From: a candidate division FCPU426 bacterium
Lineage (GTDB): Bacteria; Oederibacteriota; PGYV01; Palsa-1178
Length of the DNA: 64,000 nt
Direction: 5' to 3'
Assembly: GCA_963840035.1 (NCBI GenBank)
Contig: CAWIXE010000002.1
Coordinates: forward strand, 608,001 to 672,000
The translations under genes and the position numbers were made by a program. The notes beneath the pieces are model-generated. The model was given only the letters and a program-made list of their open reading frames with translations, ran no database searches and was not told where the DNA came from. Shown one piece after another: positions 56,915-64,000 of the stretch (positions are counted from its first letter, which is position 1; each line of letters begins with the position of its first letter).

Positions 56915-57130
56915 ATGAGCGAAAACTGTCCGAGCATGTATAATTGCCCTTTGTATCCGCTTTTTAAAAGTGAATCAACCTTAAAAGTTTTTAAACTGAG
57001 GTATTGCATGGGAAAATTCAACAACTGCGAGCGGCGGATAAGGGCCTTTGCCGAGGAAATCATAGAAGTGCCAAATAATCTGCTTCCAAACGGGGAACTG
57101 CTCGGAGAGTCAAAAAGAACAGAACCGTAA
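56915..57130 (+). CDS. Small Cys-containing hypothetical protein
   Basis: RBS GAGG; CPSMYNCPLY...YC.G.F..CER...VP.NLLPNG; TGGTATAAT upstream. Confidence 0.65.
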   Translation: MSENCPSMYNCPLYPLFKSESTLKVFKLRYCMGKFNNCERRIRAFAEEIIEVPNNLLPNGELLGESKRTEP

Positions 57131-57176: not shown

Positions 57177-57205
57177 TTGACACAAAAGCGTTTTCGTGGT
57201 ATTTT
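57177..57205 (+). promoter_or_regulatory. Sigma70 promoter of CBM-barrel operon, LacI-like core in spacer
   Basis: TTGACA-17bp-TATTTT with extended TG; spacer AAAAGCGTTTTC. Confidence 0.5.
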
Positions 57206-57233
57206 ATTTCTACCAAAATATATGGAGGAATTA

Positions 57234-60200
57234 ATGCGATTAAAACACATTATTTTTCTGGCTCTCCTTATTACTTTCCCTTTATTCCTATATTCAGCGG
57301 AAACTGCGCCCGCGCAGATTGACCCGGACAAGTTTTACCTGTTAAACGGTTTTGATGATGAAACAAACTGGACCACATCAGACTGGGCAAACAACGCGCT
57401 TTCCACAATAACCCTTTCCAATGATTTTATAACGCAGGGAAAGAAGTCCATGGAAGTAAGTTTAAACGCCGTAAAAGCGGGACAGGGCGCCATCGTGCAG
57501 GTATTGGACCCGGGTGACATGTCGGATATTAACGAGATAAGCGTGGACATTTATAACTCCTCAATGTTGAAAATGGACGTAAGGCTTATGGTAAAGACGG
57601 GCGAGGCATGGCAGTATCATGAATCAAAACCCATAGACATAAAACCGGGATGGAATAAGAATGTTGTTTTTGACCTTGCGGCGGCGGAATATACCGCTGA
57701 AGGGGCAAATACATTTAATAAGAAGATATCAAACCGTAATTTTGTTCGCAGGCTCGGTTTTCTTTTTTATCCGGGTAAACCGGTAGACGGAGCCATCTAT
57801 TTTGACAACCTCAGGATTAAAGGAGGCCAGTCCATAGCCGCGCTGTTGCCGCAGGAGGCGCCGGCTAACTTAAAAACAGTGCTTATAGATGATTTTGAAA
57901 AAGGCACCCTGAAATGGTCGGCTGCCGCAGGCTGGTCATGCGCCGCGGGAGTGGACAAGATAAAAATGCCGGATGGCAATCAGGTCCTCAAGGCGCGCTT
58001 TAATATGTCATCACCCGGCATGAATGCCGCGTTTATTACGGAAGGCTCATTTGATTTATCCGGGGTGAACGATTTCATTATGGATGTTTTTAACCCGAAT
58101 GACACTATTATGAACTGCGGGTTCGCGCTTGCTACCGGCGACAAATGGGCATGGCAGGAAGCCCCGATATTCAAGCTTAAGAAAGGCTGGAACAGGGATG
58201 TAAAGGTAAGCTTTATAAAAAAATACTGGAAAAATGAGTCAAGCGGATGGAAAAGCAATGTTACGCCGGGCGATATAAAATCCGTAAAGAGGATTAATAT
58301 GCTGCTGTACCCGCCTGATATGGGCGAAGGGTATGCGCTGATAGATAATATAAGGATGACGACAACAGAGCCTGAGAAACTGGAAACTTTGAAACCCGTG
58401 GATATCGGGCCTGTGGCATTCTCCGTATGGAACAGTTTTGAAAAAGGCGTTAACTGGTCGCCTGCGGCGGACGCCGGCGGGGCCATCGCGGTCAATCCCG
58501 CTTTTGAATTCGGCGGGCAGAGGATAAACGGAATGGAGCTTGTATATTCCACCAGGAATGAAGTTGATAAAGCGGTATATTCCTACCGTTCGTCCATTAA
58601 TTTCGCCAACAGTGTTGGCATGAAATTTGACATATATAACCCGAACGCATACGGGGTAAAAATATCGGTGGCCTTTAAGACTGGTGACCAGGAATCATGG
58701 AATGAGACAAAACAGATAGGCATAGCTCCGGGATGGAACAGGGGCATATTGATAGATTTTGTATCGCCTTCATTTAAGTCGGCGGACTCCAACTGGAATT
58801 ATACGGATCCGTTCTATACAAGGAACGACATAAGGGAGATAGATTTCCAGATATATCCGGACGCCAAGGTCCAGGGCAAACTCTATGTCAGCGAAATAAA
58901 GCTTGCGCGGAGGAATTTTCTCGGGGATATAGGAGAATGGCTGGGCTTTACTTTTGTGAATAATTCAAAGGTGAAGGTTGAATCCATAAATTATTCTCTA
59001 TGGGACAACGGATCCTCAGAAGGCGGTTTTGAATCGGACGCTGCGCTTAATTACTGGACTGACGCGGGTATGTCGGACTGGGGCGTGTCAAGGGTGTCCA
59101 TTTCCGACAAGTTCCCGTCGCAGGGTAAAAAATCGCTGCGCATGGAGTATAAGGACGCGAATATCAAGGTCGGACTTGCGTACAAAAGCGTGACTGCTTT
59201 CAGCGTTTCAGACAAGGATTATTTCACGTTTGACGTGTATAACCCAGGAAAACTCATGAAATGCTCCATGGTATTTGATGACGGAAACACCGGCGGCTGG
59301 TACGAGACCAAACAATACGTCATATACCCGGGATGGAACAGGAACATAAAGGTTGACCTTAATTCCAATGACTGGAAACATGACTCTACAAACCTTCAGA
59401 ACTGCGATATATTACGCATTAAAAACGCGGTAAAGAATATCTTCATCATATTTTACGGCGGTATTGAAGGGTCCATATACCTGGATAACGTCAGGTGGGG
59501 CAAGAAATCCGGCCTGTCGTTGACACAGGCGGATGTCACACAGGATATTAACCTTGAACTTTCACCTTTGGATAATATCGACGCCAAGCTGACTCTGCGC
59601 GCCGCATATCACGCAGGAGGGGCGAATGAACTTGCCCTGGCTTCCGGGCATATTAACCTGCGCGGTTTTGGAAACGAACTCTCGGTATTCTCCGGGGAAC
59701 CCGCAAAGATTATTGACGACGTATTCGGGATAGTGGATCCGGGCGCGGTCGGGCCAAATAACATGGGTGTTTCCCTCGCGGGTACCGTATTCCCGATTAA
59801 CACTTCATATATCCTCAGCGGTTTAAGCCTCGATGCTTCAGAACCCTGGAAACTTTCGACAAGCTATCTTATGACCGCTAGGATAAAGACCTACCTGTTT
59901 GAGAAAAATTTCATTGGCGCTCTCTACGTGAATAACAGGCGCGGGTATTCCGAGGGCGCGGATATATTTTCTGGGAATTTTGAACAGTCAAGCCATGTAT
60001 ACGGCGGTGACGCTTCGCTTGCCATACCGGGGTTCGGGCTCTTTGACCTTAACCTTAAAGGGGAAGTGCTTTTCGCAAGTTATGACACTTTAAAACCCGT
60101 ATACCTGATTGATTCCGTGCCTCCGAAATATGTTTTTGAGGATCTCACCACATCGGCCGACAGGAAACTTATCTACGGCCAGGCTGACCTGCACGCGGGT

Positions 60201-60944
60201 TACCTGACACTTTACGCAAACTTAAGGATGATAGACAGGATGTTTTCCGCGACTTACTGTAACCAGGATTATAAGCCCGGTGATAACGCCATGTCTGTGA
60301 AGGCCACGTACATTATGGATGATGTTCCGCCATTTTCAATATTAAAATCCTTATCGCCCGAATCCGAAGCTTTTGTAAGAGGCACCCAGCTTATGGTCGA
60401 ATACAACAGGAACCATCAGTTAGGGGGGCTTACTTATCAAAAAGACTCATTAACTATAGATCTGAAAAACGACGAGGCGCTGGCAATGTCTAATTACCAC
60501 ATCTGGTACAGTTACGCCACCGAAGGCAATCCTTATCAGATACCGACGAGTTCGTTTACAGCCACCACAAAGCTGCTTATAGCAAACCTGGTTACGACGC
60601 GTGTTCTTTTAAGGTACCAGGCTTTAAGGGGTACTTTTTACAATGGCACAGGTGACCCTGCGCTGAGCGCGTCATTTAGTGAGGAAAACTACCCGCAATA
60701 TACCGGATTCCTTGAAGCCGGAATAAAGCTGTTTAAAGACTACAAACTCACGGCAAGCTGCAAGCTTCAGAATGCGCGGGGCATATGGTACACGAATGCT
60801 TACGCGGAAGCCGAAGCCAACTTAGTTGGAGCGGTAAACGCCATATTGAGTTACGGCGAGAAGCCGTTTACAGGCTACTGGTCGGATGATAATTCCAGGG
60901 ATACAAAAGATGTATACATGCTGAGCCTGAAGGCTTACTTCTAA
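57234..60944 (+). CDS. Four CBM-like repeats fused to a C-terminal outer-membrane beta-barrel
   Basis: Signal peptide; four F[DE]..W...D[IV][YF]N...W.E...GWN[KR]... repeats; amphipathic strands ending SLKAYF. Confidence 0.8.
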   Translation: MRLKHIIFLALLITFPLFLYSAETAPAQIDPDKFYLLNGFDDETNWTTSDWANNALSTITLSNDFITQGKKSMEVSLNAVKAGQGAIVQVLDPGDMSDINEISVDIYNSSMLKMDVRLMVKTGEAWQYHESKPIDIKPGWNKNVVFDLAAAEYTAEGANTFNKKISNRNFVRRLGFLFYPGKPVDGAIYFDNLRIKGGQSIAALLPQEAPANLKTVLIDDFEKGTLKWSAAAGWSCAAGVDKIKMPDGNQVLKARFNMSSPGMNAAFITEGSFDLSGVNDFIMDVFNPNDTIMNCGFALATGDKWAWQEAPIFKLKKGWNRDVKVSFIKKYWKNESSGWKSNVTPGDIKSVKRINMLLYPPDMGEGYALIDNIRMTTTEPEKLETLKPVDIGPVAFSVWNSFEKGVNWSPAADAGGAIAVNPAFEFGGQRINGMELVYSTRNEVDKAVYSYRSSINFANSVGMKFDIYNPNAYGVKISVAFKTGDQESWNETKQIGIAPGWNRGILIDFVSPSFKSADSNWNYTDPFYTRNDIREIDFQIYPDAKVQGKLYVSEIKLARRNFLGDIGEWLGFTFVNNSKVKVESINYSLWDNGSSEGGFESDAALNYWTDAGMSDWGVSRVSISDKFPSQGKKSLRMEYKDANIKVGLAYKSVTAFSVSDKDYFTFDVYNPGKLMKCSMVFDDGNTGGWYETKQYVIYPGWNRNIKVDLNSNDWKHDSTNLQNCDILRIKNAVKNIFIIFYGGIEGSIYLDNVRWGKKSGLSLTQADVTQDINLELSPLDNIDAKLTLRAAYHAGGANELALASGHINLRGFGNELSVFSGEPAKIIDDVFGIVDPGAVGPNNMGVSLAGTVFPINTSYILSGLSLDASEPWKLSTSYLMTARIKTYLFEKNFIGALYVNNRRGYSEGADIFSGNFEQSSHVYGGDASLAIPGFGLFDLNLKGEVLFASYDTLKPVYLIDSVPPKYVFEDLTTSADRKLIYGQADLHAGYLTLYANLRMIDRMFSATYCNQDYKPGDNAMSVKATYIMDDVPPFSILKSLSPESEAFVRGTQLMVEYNRNHQLGGLTYQKDSLTIDLKNDEALAMSNYHIWYSYATEGNPYQIPTSSFTATTKLLIANLVTTRVLLRYQALRGTFYNGTGDPALSASFSEENYPQYTGFLEAGIKLFKDYKLTASCKLQNARGIWYTNAYAEAEANLVGAVNAILSYGEKPFTGYWSDDNSRDTKDVYMLSLKAYF

Positions 60945-60964: not shown

Positions 60965-63388
60965 ATGAAAAGAATCATAACATGCGCAGCCATAATGTTG
61001 ATGGCCGCTTCAGGTATTTCCGGATATGCCATCAGCGGTTTGTCCATTACTGACAAGGAAGGCGTGCCTGTAAGGCTTACCGGCATTAACGCGCCATACC
61101 TGCCGATGCTTGATGAGCCGGAAATAAAGGCCGGACTTGACCTTATCAAACGTTCAGGGGTTAAAGTCGTCAGGGTTTTTGCCTCATTCTGCGGAAACAA
61201 GTCATATTCAATTCAGACAGGCCTGGGCAAGTATAATGACATGGCCCTTGAAACGCTGGATTTTACCCTTGCTGAAATCGGTGTCCGAGGCATGAAAGCG
61301 ATAGTGGTGCTTAGTGACTCCAATAAAACCTACGGCGGCAAGGAAGTGTATGCCCAGTGGGTGGGAGGTTCCAACGAAGACGTCTTTTTTAAAGACAAGA
61401 TTTGCCGGGAGTATTTCAAGCAGTTCATAACCATGATTTTGGACAGAAAAAACACGCTGACAGGCATTAAATATAAAAAAGACCCGAATATATTCGCGTG
61501 GGACCTTTGTAATGACGCTGAGAATAAAAGCGATGAGACAGGCGCGGCTATTTATAAGTGGGCCGGGGAAATGTCGGGATTCATAAAGGCCGATGATAAA
61601 ATGCATCCTGTGATAATGGGCGTTAAAAAGATTGTTATTTCCGATGATGAGATAAACGCTTATGACCTTTTCCTCGTTCCGGGGCTCGATGCGGCGTATA
61701 TTACGCTGAAGGCCGACGCGAAGATACCGCCTAACACGGCGCTTAATTATATTAAAAGGTATACTGCGGCTTTCTACGCGCAGGTGAACAAGCCCGTATT
61801 CCTGAACTTCAGCGACATTACAGGCGGAGCTTCGGCGACCATGTTATCCGACGCGGCAAGGTCTTTCTTTGAATCAAACGGGTCGCTGATAATATACAAC
61901 TACGCAGGGCTCCTGGCCTATAAGAAATATCCCGGCGCGCTTGACCTGGAAAATGATGCCGTTACAGGGGAGCTTCTTAAGGCCGCTGAAATATCCGATG
62001 AATTCAGGAAAGATGTGCCTGCCATTGCGATAAAATCGGTAAAAGTTTCCGCTGAACCGTACTCGGCAAAAATAACTTTTGATCTTTCCGAAAAGACAGA
62101 CGCGGAAGTGTTATACGGGGAATCAATGCCTTTAAAAACCAGGGCAAAAAAGGCGGCGGCGGAAGAGCTCAGCCAGTCGGTGCGAATCGACGGGCTGAAG
62201 GCCAACACCAAATACTTTTATATTGTAAAAGCGGGATCGTCCGCAAAAGCCGGCGTGACAAAAGTAAACAGTTTTATGACGTCCATACCTGAAAGAATAC
62301 CGGCTGTGCCTTTTAAAAGGAGTAAAAATTTTATCACCGTAAAAGGCACGCAGTTTTTTGACGGGGATAAACCGTATAAATATGTCGGGACCAATTGTTA
62401 CTATTTGAGATATACCAAGGACAAGTCCGTTGTTGACTACGTAATGAGGGAAGCTTCGCGCATGGGGTTTAAGGTAATAAGGGTGGGCTCAAACGGGGAA
62501 GCGGTCGATGAAAAAGAGGCGAGCGCGGGGGACCCGCTGAGGTACTTAAGGATAGGGCCGGACAAGTTCAATGAAAAGGCTTACAAAGGACTGGATTATG
62601 TAATAGATTCCGCTAGAAGAAATAACATGAGGGTCATACTGCATTTCTCGGATAATTGGGAATACTACGGCGGATTAAAAGTCTACGCTAAATGGGCGGG
62701 GCTGGAAGACAAGAACGCCGTATTCACAAATGAATTGTGCAGGAAGTACTTCAAGCAGACTATTGACGCACTTGTTAAAAGGAAAAATACATATTCGAAA
62801 ATTGATTATAAAGATGACCCGACAATTTTCGCCTATGACCTTTCAAATGAGCCGCGCGATGAAAACGACCCGACCGGCAAGGAACTTAACGGATGGATTG
62901 CCGAGATGTCAGCGTACGTTAAGTCTTTGGATAAGAAGCATCTTGTCACGACCGGCAGCGAAGGATTCTTCCTGAAAGAAGACGGCACTCATTATGGCGG
63001 CGCTGATTTTATAACCGAACACCAGATACCCACGATTGACTTCTGCACATACCACGTATATCCTTCGTATGAGCATAATAACTACTCGCTTAAAACAACA
63101 AAATGGATGATAGACCGTTGGGTAAAAACGGCGCATGAAACCATAGGAAAGCCTGTTGTTATGGAAGAATACGGTATCCCAAGCAAGAACCCTGATTTCC
63201 CGAAAGCCACCTGGATAAGGGAAATGACAAATCAGTTCTTTAATGACGGAGGGGACGGAGTAAACTACTGGTTCCTGATAGACCCGTCGTATTCAGGCGG
63301 TGATGGTTTTGAAGTCACCCCGGATGACACGGAATATGTAAATGAATTCATCAAAGTAGCCAACACTATCAATAAAGACGGTTATTAA
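60965..63388 (+). CDS. Tandem GH5 (mannanase-like) protein: degenerate GH5 + Fn3-like + intact GH5
   Basis: Two copies of R.N....I.YK.DP.IFA.DL.N; second has NEP and MEEYG, first has NDA and FLNFS. Confidence 0.85.
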   Translation: MKRIITCAAIMLMAASGISGYAISGLSITDKEGVPVRLTGINAPYLPMLDEPEIKAGLDLIKRSGVKVVRVFASFCGNKSYSIQTGLGKYNDMALETLDFTLAEIGVRGMKAIVVLSDSNKTYGGKEVYAQWVGGSNEDVFFKDKICREYFKQFITMILDRKNTLTGIKYKKDPNIFAWDLCNDAENKSDETGAAIYKWAGEMSGFIKADDKMHPVIMGVKKIVISDDEINAYDLFLVPGLDAAYITLKADAKIPPNTALNYIKRYTAAFYAQVNKPVFLNFSDITGGASATMLSDAARSFFESNGSLIIYNYAGLLAYKKYPGALDLENDAVTGELLKAAEISDEFRKDVPAIAIKSVKVSAEPYSAKITFDLSEKTDAEVLYGESMPLKTRAKKAAAEELSQSVRIDGLKANTKYFYIVKAGSSAKAGVTKVNSFMTSIPERIPAVPFKRSKNFITVKGTQFFDGDKPYKYVGTNCYYLRYTKDKSVVDYVMREASRMGFKVIRVGSNGEAVDEKEASAGDPLRYLRIGPDKFNEKAYKGLDYVIDSARRNNMRVILHFSDNWEYYGGLKVYAKWAGLEDKNAVFTNELCRKYFKQTIDALVKRKNTYSKIDYKDDPTIFAYDLSNEPRDENDPTGKELNGWIAEMSAYVKSLDKKHLVTTGSEGFFLKEDGTHYGGADFITEHQIPTIDFCTYHVYPSYEHNNYSLKTTKWMIDRWVKTAHETIGKPVVMEEYGIPSKNPDFPKATWIREMTNQFFNDGGDGVNYWFLIDPSYSGGDGFEVTPDDTEYVNEFIKVANTINKDGY

Positions 63389-63426: not shown

Positions 63427-64000
63427 ATGAAAAAGACAATTGCGGTCATTTTACTTGCAACGGCAATTATTTTATGTTCGTGCGGTAAGGTTAAGGAATA
63501 TCCGACATCAACGCTCATGTTGTCGGCGGGCGGCACCGATAATTCCACGTATCCTTTTGAGGACGCTGGAGGGCTCGCGGGATTCAGCATCATTGATGTA
63601 CCAACTAACCGGCGTTTTTTATCCATGTCTTTTTCAACTGAGCAGGCATACAAGGGATCCGGTTCGGTAAAAATAGCATGCAACTTTAACGCAGGCAACT
63701 CTGGTGGCGTTATATCCAGAAGCGGGACAAATATGCCCATGGCGGGAAAGACTATAACAGCCTATGTATGGGTCCCATACGGGATGTTTCCGCTGTCTCT
63801 GGTGTACGGCACGTCCATATTTGTCCAAATCGCAAATTTTAACTGGTATGACAGCGGCTGGAAAAATTTGACCCCGGCATCGGCAATAGTCCCGGGTATG
63901 TGGAACAAAATTTCGGCGAAGGTGGATGACATGATATTCAACGGCAAGAATTTCGCGGGCAATGGCGATAATGCCAATACAGCCATAATATGGGGAATAA
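63427..64000 (+). CDS. CBM-like lipoprotein, 3' truncated by window edge (absent from ORF track)
   Basis: RBS GGAGG; MKKTIAVILLATAIILCSC lipobox; open to window end; AYKGSGSVK, ITAYVWVP, NWYD, GMWNKI parallel the 5560 lipoprotein. Confidence 0.8.
   Translation, partial: MKKTIAVILLATAIILCSCGKVKEYPTSTLMLSAGGTDNSTYPFEDAGGLAGFSIIDVPTNRRFLSMSFSTEQAYKGSGSVKIACNFNAGNSGGVISRSGTNMPMAGKTITAYVWVPYGMFPLSLVYGTSIFVQIANFNWYDSGWKNLTPASAIVPGMWNKISAKVDDMIFNGKNFAGNGDNANTAIIWGI

Follow-up and report, generated by a model that had tools for sequence, protein, structure and literature searches.

A conserved repeat protein with a predicted 24-stranded outer-membrane barrel, encoded beside a mannanase-like gene: a candidate glycan importer from a candidate division FCPU426 bacterium

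The locus

The stretch of DNA analyzed here (the window) comprises 64,000 nucleotides from a candidate division FCPU426 bacterium (GenBank assembly GCA_963840035.1, contig CAWIXE010000002.1, positions 608,001 to 672,000, forward strand). Our subject is the open reading frame (ORF) at window positions 57234-60944 (+), which encodes 1,236 amino acid residues containing four repeats followed by a predicted outer-membrane barrel, together with the two genes downstream of it, one for a glycoside hydrolase of family 5 (GH5; 60965-63388) and one for a lipoprotein (from 63427 past the window end). All three are on the same strand and separated by short gaps; an earlier note on this sequence had placed the barrel gene at the head of an operon with the other two. 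Detection of BamA shows that the host is a diderm.

The reading frame begins with ATG, preceded by GGAGG at 57224-57228. The protein starts with a hydrophobic stretch that resembles a signal peptide and contains no cysteine, and residues ~1-22 (57234-57299, +) are predicted to form a cleavable signal peptide without lipobox cysteine, a pattern that homologues share; the cleavage site was judged by eye. A sigma-70-like promoter candidate, TTGACA-17-TATTTT (57177-57205, +), lies 29 bp 5' of the ATG. It is its position that speaks for this site; matches of the same type occur at chance frequency (2 sites against 1.9 expected). A TTG start at 57177 was ruled out, since it falls inside the promoter-like site and homologues begin at the ATG. 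Just 5' of the barrel gene there is a small cysteine-containing ORF (56915-57130, 71 residues from its ATG), which has no Pfam match and no counterpart in front of the barrel gene in those related loci that were listed.

Four repeats with a carbohydrate-binding fold

The four repeats are marked by the cores PGWNKNV (G139), KGWNRDV (G318), PGWNRGI (G500) and PGWNRNI (G700), exactly as first noticed. Their number stands, and their size, originally put at about 180 residues, is closer to 165, with 179, 182 and 200 residues between successive cores. The repeats are 22-29% identical to each other (E-values of 1e-12 to 1e-20), far above chance. The only Pfam family that the whole protein matches above cut-off is PF21253, Mann_GBD_bact (42.6 bits against a cut-off of 27); an NCBIfam search of the whole protein gave no match. 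Repeat 1 (residues 33-197; 57330-57824, +) contains the best PF21253 stretch (43-151), and repeat 2 (residues 214-378; 57873-58367, +) is delimited by the repeat alignment. Repeat 3 spans residues ~394-560 (58413-58913, +) and repeat 4 residues ~590-757 (59001-59504, +).

For repeats 3 and 4, folding predicts a galactose-binding-like beta-sandwich, and homology extends this prediction to repeats 1 and 2. The modeled repeat 4 can be superposed on the carbohydrate-binding module (CBM) of the Bacillus mannanase 1wky (Z 16.0, root-mean-square deviation (rmsd) 2.3, 139 aligned residues) and on the CBM11 1v0a (Z 15.2, rmsd 3.1, 155 aligned); for repeat 3, the matching modules are CBM17, CBM27, CBM30 and one from a xanthanase. 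The repeats thus resemble modules of the PF21253/CBM11/CBM27 type, both in matching PF21253 above cut-off and in superposing on the 1wky module, CBM11, CBM22, CBM27 and CBM28, but they are only 13-26% identical to them and are fused to a membrane barrel and not to an enzyme. As modeled, the repeats carry a carbohydrate-binding fold, although likeness of fold does not identify the ligand.

A predicted 24-stranded barrel with a surface lid

The amphipathic C-terminal region of about 470 residues, which ends in Phe, had been proposed to be an outer-membrane barrel, and it is indeed predicted to fold as one. In an AlphaFold2 model of residues 757-1236 (predicted local distance difference test, pLDDT, 84.2; predicted template modeling score, pTM, 0.74), 23 barrel strands are seen. 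They correspond to strands 2-24 of our final numbering (residues 767-1236; 59532-60944, +) and end with an invariant C-terminal Phe. The strands are joined in turn by long loops and by tight turns of 2-5 residues, the exceptions being a predicted periplasmic helical hairpin (residues ~1028-1051) and one turn of 8 residues. The top Foldseek matches are all large outer-membrane barrels (MtrB, LptD, PapC, CirA, FimD, SlpA), at 7-11% identity. The barrel region has no Pfam family match in 25 homologues, and sequence searches of the PDB, both with the protein and with a barrel profile, returned nothing meaningful.

Counting back from the Phe, the first strand of this model begins on the outer side, so one strand appears to be missing. 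The linker between repeats 3 and 4 (residues 570-589; 58941-59000, +) is predicted to supply it as strand 1. In homologues, the linker before the last repeat has the alternating hydrophobic pattern of an amphipathic strand, whereas the other linkers do not. When residues 392-1236 were folded with 36 sequences (pLDDT 86.1), the pTM rose from 0.74 to 0.81, a 20-residue strand formed at 570-589 (pLDDT 85-90), and a continuous 35-residue strand ran from repeat 4 into strand 2. Solved barrels, porins included, meet this model from its residue 177-184, that is in the linker, at their own first strand. With the linker included, FimD and PapC both align at Z 12.8, FimD with its residues 138-656 on model residues 178-845 (rmsd 5.0 over 365 residues) and PapC with its residues 146-632 on model residues 179-845 (rmsd 5.5 over 369 residues); with the linker-less model, only FimD 160-656 (rmsd 6.7) and PapC 165-633 (rmsd 7.2) were aligned. 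SprA, also among the Foldseek tops for the long model, was set aside, as its rmsd was about 40 and its TM score 0.12-0.16.

In outer-membrane barrels, the periplasmic side is the one that has the short turns and the C-terminal Phe. By this rule, repeat 4, which the AlphaFold2 model and structure alignments place in extracellular loop 1, would sit on the surface as a lid, and everything that precedes strand 1 would be on the periplasmic side. The domains had been taken for four free tandem units ahead of the barrel, which the models contradict, since they put repeat 4 within the barrel and repeat 3 in its lumen. Whether the repeats face the periplasm or the surface had been left undecided; the models suggest both: repeat 4 would be exposed on the surface, repeat 3 would occupy the lumen and repeats 1 and 2, from their position N-terminal to repeat 3, would lie in the periplasm.

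Repeat 3 as a predicted plug

No plug had been recognized in the sequence, but the models contain one. For several TonB-dependent transporters (TBDTs), it was the plug region that aligned with the modeled repeat 3. As an ESMFold2 complex, repeat 3 and the rest of the barrel scored 0.86, and the best of three controls 0.00. The mark applied, which 116 of 157 solved complexes and 2 of 215 mismatched pairs attain, is roughly valid here, where our own alignment was used. The model runs agreed in at least 89% of contacts, with a partner pLDDT of at least 87 and 166-178 contacts. The plug touches 20 of the 24 strands, among them strands 1, 2 and 24, and 39 of the 47 plug-strand contacts are on the lumen-side parity. 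Beyond the strands, it contacts two of the outer loops and, in repeat 4, a single residue. Strands 15-17 and 21 have no confident plug contact, which leaves the residues not named there uncertain and does not prove them free. There is likewise no confident barrel contact for the part of repeat 3 with W489 and the invariant E491, and many conserved charged residues of the lumen lie outside the plug interface. Repeat 3 is thus predicted to plug the lumen, and a sugar path could run between the plug and strands 15-17 and 21. Taken together, the models make it very probable that the protein is a 24-stranded barrel with one CBM-fold repeat as plug, a second as surface lid and two more in the periplasm.

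A plug that meets so many strands, with no evident energy source to move it, would also fit a permanently plugged surface anchor, in which the barrel would let nothing through and would serve only to expose repeat 4 for adhesion to mannan or for sensing it. There is a precedent in Wzi, whose 18-stranded barrel is occluded and has been described as lectin-like (PMC9603273). However, a barrel of 24 strands and two to three further periplasmic CBM-fold domains would be superfluous for anchoring, the conserved charged residues of the lumen extend beyond the plug interface, and the partner mannanase, which has neither a lipobox nor a secretion tail, needs its substrate delivered. We consider a mere anchor unlikely.

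Comparison with known outer-membrane proteins

SusC/SusD offers one functional parallel. It has a barrel that is plugged by an N-terminal domain and covered by a lid, as predicted for our protein, and both systems are linked to a glycoside hydrolase and a lipoprotein of glycan-binding type. The differences are substantial. The model has 24 strands and not the 22 of TBDTs and SusC-type barrels (PMC13543919), the plug, although N-terminal and in the lumen as in TBDTs, has a predicted CBM fold, the lid is part of the same chain and inserted in loop 1, and there are additional periplasmic CBM-fold domains. Neither Pfam nor NCBIfam profiles for TBDT barrels or plugs match the protein at E 0.1; PF00593 matches five other places in the genome and none at this locus. 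No SusD (PF07980) was found in the 98%-complete genome, while the control search matched in B. thetaiotaomicron. By eye, no TonB box is evident before the plug, the motif being too loose to exclude one. In homologues with only two repeats, no more than a few residues separate the signal peptide from the plug repeat, which leaves no room for a TonB box.

The same architecture and substrate could nevertheless be combined with an energized mechanism, in which the plug would be opened by a pull on repeats 1 and 2, exerted by TonB or by some other motor in the periplasm. A 165-residue plug would be hard to shift without energy, and TonB and ExbBD-type genes are present. As there is no TonB gene in the loci read, no TBDT profile match and no N-terminal segment before the plug in the 2-repeat homologues, we regard such a non-canonical TonB-dependent importer as improbable.

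Sugar porins (LamB, ScrY, ChiP, CymA) have 14-18 strands, with 14-16 in CymA and the chitoporin ChiP, and at most a short peptide as plug; the model has neither this strand number nor a short plug. It resembles CymA and ChiP in that these are TonB-independent oligosaccharide channels with an N-terminal plug on the periplasmic side that the ligand expels (PMC10406626), but their plug is a short peptide (19 residues in VhChiP), where our protein has a predicted plug domain of 165 residues plus a predicted surface domain.

The ushers PapC and FimD are the best full-length fold matches (rmsd 3.9-5.5 over 365-379 residues), sharing the 24-stranded barrel and a beta-sandwich plug. The usher plug is inserted mid-barrel, whereas here the plug precedes strand 1, and identity is only 7-11%. 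Usher profiles, chaperone-binding domains and genes for chaperones or pilins were not found in the protein, the 25 barrel sequences or the loci read, and no pilus genes lie nearby. The fold match raises the question of a dedicated protein exporter that would take the GH5 enzyme or the lipoprotein to the surface once the plug is displaced. In favor of such an exporter, the barrel gene is strictly linked to a single enzyme and a single lipoprotein, and no type II secretin was found in the genome (its two secretins are in type IV pilus and Tad-like contexts). Against it speak the 2-repeat homologues, which lack the GH5 partner, and the carbohydrate-binding fold of all accessory domains. Given also the low identity and missing usher signatures, protein export seems quite unlikely to us.

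A classical autotransporter has a 12-stranded barrel of about 300 residues and its whole N-terminal passenger outside. Here, the predicted strands number 24, only repeat 4 is outside, where it is inserted in a loop, and autotransporter profiles gave no match. The suspicion that the C-terminus might not fold as a barrel, or might be a standard TBDT or autotransporter, is thus not borne out by the model.

An atypical polysaccharide utilization locus of Cytophaga hutchinsonii, chu_1276-1280, is similar as described: it has non-canonical barrel genes, a CBM-like protein and a hydrolase and is required for polysaccharide use, but its binding modules are separate proteins (PMC12016534). Language-model features link our protein to DUF6029 (score 0.93, 162 of 256 features) and to Wzi, a plugged carbohydrate-binding barrel that differs by its 18 strands, helical plug and location in biosynthesis clusters (PMC9603273). 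PF19494 (DUF6029) matches none of the 25 barrel sequences; a genome-wide search with it gave no match, and neither did its control. Since DUF6029 has been tied to polysaccharide export (PMC9603273) and a glycosyltransferase of family 2 adjoins one 2-repeat locus, the barrel might instead secrete a mannose-rich polymer, and the GH5 enzyme would then clear polymer from the periplasm, as hydrolases do in synthase-dependent systems. However, no synthase, flippase or outer-membrane polysaccharide export gene is seen beside the cassette, and the neighbors in relatives are catabolic (GH130, GH2, LacI, sugar-binding protein). Together with the PF19494 result, this makes export of a polysaccharide very improbable.

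On the modeled architecture, the protein is not a member of the SusCD, CymA/ChiP, usher, autotransporter or DUF6029/Wzi barrels, and our PDB searches found no counterpart for a 24-stranded barrel with a CBM as plug and a second CBM on loop 1.

Family and distribution

A profile from repeat 3 to the C-terminus found full-length homologues in 35 of the 99 genomes of the phylum (E below 1e-100), and a search with the barrel alone found 28 of 99. Only 36 proteins were retrieved from 1.84 billion representatives, so the family is small. A free-standing barrel was not found among these 36, in searches that did not extend to longer or shorter lengths: the full-length matches all carry repeats, and the others look like fragments. 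Homologues with 46-47% identity in the barrel are labeled Ca. Goldbacteria/Goldiibacteriota by their sources, and one 2-repeat homologue Ca. Coatesbacteria. In the literature searched, which did not cover supplements, the family is not described, although the CAZyme tables of PMC7031533 could list the repeats as CBM11. The family is thus conserved and, as far as this literature goes, undescribed, and its predicted architecture is unusual. In the alignments, A3 omits row L018 (unknown bases), and A5 omits L012, L013, L021 and L027 (broken or partial).

Homologues have 2, 4 or 5 repeats. In a quick tree, 89 repeats grouped by position and not by protein (7 label changes, against a mean of 51.6 after shuffling), and the last repeats of 4- and 5-repeat proteins fell in one group (support 93). 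The repeats would accordingly be old and position-specific. Some 2-repeat homologues (L060:4790-8008, L054:9146-12727, P0032) bear other N-terminal domains, with a weak CsgG-like match in P0032, which suggests that the periplasmic part can be exchanged. In one homologue (L036:1486-5190, genome G086), the barrel gene is broken by a single TAA within repeat 4, through either assembly error or decay.

The mannanase and the lipoprotein

The gene at 60965-63388 (+) encodes a two-domain, beta-mannanase-like enzyme with a signal peptide, an N-terminal GH5 copy, a linker domain and a C-terminal GH5 domain. Its best PDB match is the mannan endo-1,4-beta-mannosidase 3pz9 (E 8e-51), and all 16 matches are mannanases or mannosidases. 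In the C-terminal domain, the catalytic residues E629 (acid/base, in an NEP motif) and E735 (nucleophile) are invariant in 17 of 17 sequences. The N-terminal copy (60965-62000) is 28% identical to the C-terminal one and lacks catalytic Glu in this protein; the copy is kept in all aligned cassette homologues. From its sequence, it is likely a mannan-binding pseudoenzyme. The signal peptide, together with the absence of a lipobox and of a tail of the secretion type, suggests that the enzyme is periplasmic.

The GH5 partner is present in exactly the 27 of 99 genomes in which the search with the barrel alone detected a 4- or 5-repeat protein. It adjoins that protein in 26 of them, and the 27th case is cut by a contig end. 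In one genome, the GH5 gene is split in two frames (G096:C10:44484-46464), again through assembly error or decay. The third gene of the cassette (63427-64000, +, on to window position 64071) encodes a 214-residue lipoprotein (Cys18) with one repeat-related domain (hhalign to the repeat profile with 94.9%, E 4e-8, 16 aligned).

For the homologue family f22, the stretches fetched from 8 loci hold GH130 in four and LacI in five, besides genes for a phosphomannomutase-like protein, a GH2 with mannosidase Ig domain (beta-mannosidase), a phosphoglucose/phosphomannose isomerase (PGI/PMI)-type protein, an esterase and a sugar-binding protein. The neighbors of 2-repeat loci include, in some, alpha-galactosidase, GH129, GH2, GH42, GH43, GH5 and oxidoreductases and, in others, unrelated genes. 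Elsewhere in the genome under study, there is a GH26 of 1,044 residues, the C-terminal tail of which is like that of other large secreted-type enzymes.

A model for glycan import

The earlier note had proposed a single polypeptide that combines glycan binding with an outer-membrane channel or anchor and could stand in for SusC/SusD. This proposal is supported by the fold, by the gene context and by the lack of any SusD match in a 98%-complete genome. We think it probable that the protein is a TonB-independent, plugged channel that imports beta-mannan oligosaccharides for the adjacent mannanase. What is observed are the ORF, its repeats, the gene cassette, the co-occurrence and the catalytic residues of the GH5 enzyme; barrel, strand 1, lid and plug are predictions from two structure models, and substrate, direction and gating are inferred. 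For mannan import as such, we judge the chances to be good. Whether it constitutes a new class of outer-membrane glycan importer, in which plug, lid and periplasmic relay are copies of one CBM, and a single chain without TonB replaces SusC, SusD and the surface glycan-binding proteins and threads mannan to a periplasmic mannanase, is in our estimate an even bet.

In such a model, the separately encoded, secreted-type GH26 would cut mannan outside the cell, and repeat 4, in its predicted position above the pore mouth, would catch the chains together with the CBM-like lipoprotein. The sugar would then slip past the plug at strands 15-17 and 21, where a gap to the barrel wall may be left; alternatively, the ligand might loosen the plug without TonB, as in CymA and chitoporin. 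On the inner side, repeats 2 and then 1 would hold the chain and pass it to the periplasmic GH5 enzyme, which by cutting would maintain the gradient, and an inner-membrane carrier would take up the products.

Several observations weigh against this reading. With respect to the plug, the docked pieces are parts of one chain, which tend to pass, and solved plugged barrels may have helped; the docking controls exclude repeats 1 and 2, and close cousins can pass. Conservation is not raised at the interface (0.66 for the repeat 3 interface, 0.66 for the same positions of repeat 2, 0.72 for the rest of repeat 3). Repeats 1 and 2 lie outside the folded models, sidedness depends on the general rule of short turns and C-terminal Phe, and covariation by mutual information (56 sequences, Neff 42) could not separate neighboring from other strands, either for strand 1 or generally. 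The genome contains five TonB_C matches, which leaves room for a use of TonB. As for mannan, the GH130 match of this genome is weak (E 7e-4), BLAST of the genome with the GH130, phosphomannomutase and phosphomannose isomerase of relatives gave no match, and the cassette here is surrounded by housekeeping genes and accompanied by neither a regulator nor a transporter. Finally, the mannanase partner is missing from the 2-repeat subfamily, whose neighbors are mixed and in part unrelated to sugars, which suggests other substrates for this subfamily.

How large glycans cross the outer membrane without SusC/SusD in diderm polysaccharide degraders outside Bacteroidota is a largely open question. A 2026 review, in its available text, names only the TBDT, ATP-binding cassette (ABC), phosphotransferase system and major facilitator superfamily classes (PMC13543919). 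The lineage studied here has already been shown to attack cellulose (PMC7031533), and barrel, porin, TonB, SusD and mannan do not figure in the available text of that report. The protein is a concrete candidate for a one-gene importer and could be expressed alone in E. coli. For annotation, it would mean that CBMs which seem to stand in tandem ahead of a barrel may lie on both sides of the membrane.

Other barrel-like genes and CBM-like lipoproteins in the genome

At the other end of the window (<1-23028; G000:C2:604745-631031), there is a cluster of xyloglucan/hemicellulose type, with neither TBDT nor SusD, that includes two barrel-like genes (775 and 702 residues, C-terminal Phe) and genes for a sugar-binding protein, a BNR-repeat GH74-like protein, a small CBM-like lipoprotein, GH31, GH2, GH36, an esterase, GH62, GH5 and GH43. 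A paralogous barrel pair (805 and 715 residues, 30% and 37% identical to the 775/702-residue pair) lies at G000:C2:336531-365059, amid large secreted-type enzymes and several CBM-like lipoproteins. The lineage may thus use a second, two-gene, non-TonB outer-membrane gate for glucans. Many large enzymes (e.g. G000 C2:1314759-1317893 and 341704-348518) end in a K/R-aliphatic tail that resembles a secretion signal; a genome search with SprA_N gave no match, nor did its control. Lipoproteins with one to three copies of the same CBM-like domain are found across the genome (G000:C2:1494103-1499284, 1454286, 941839, 124066; C1:513647), and one group of them adjoins a barrel-like gene of 495 residues and sugar ABC permeases.

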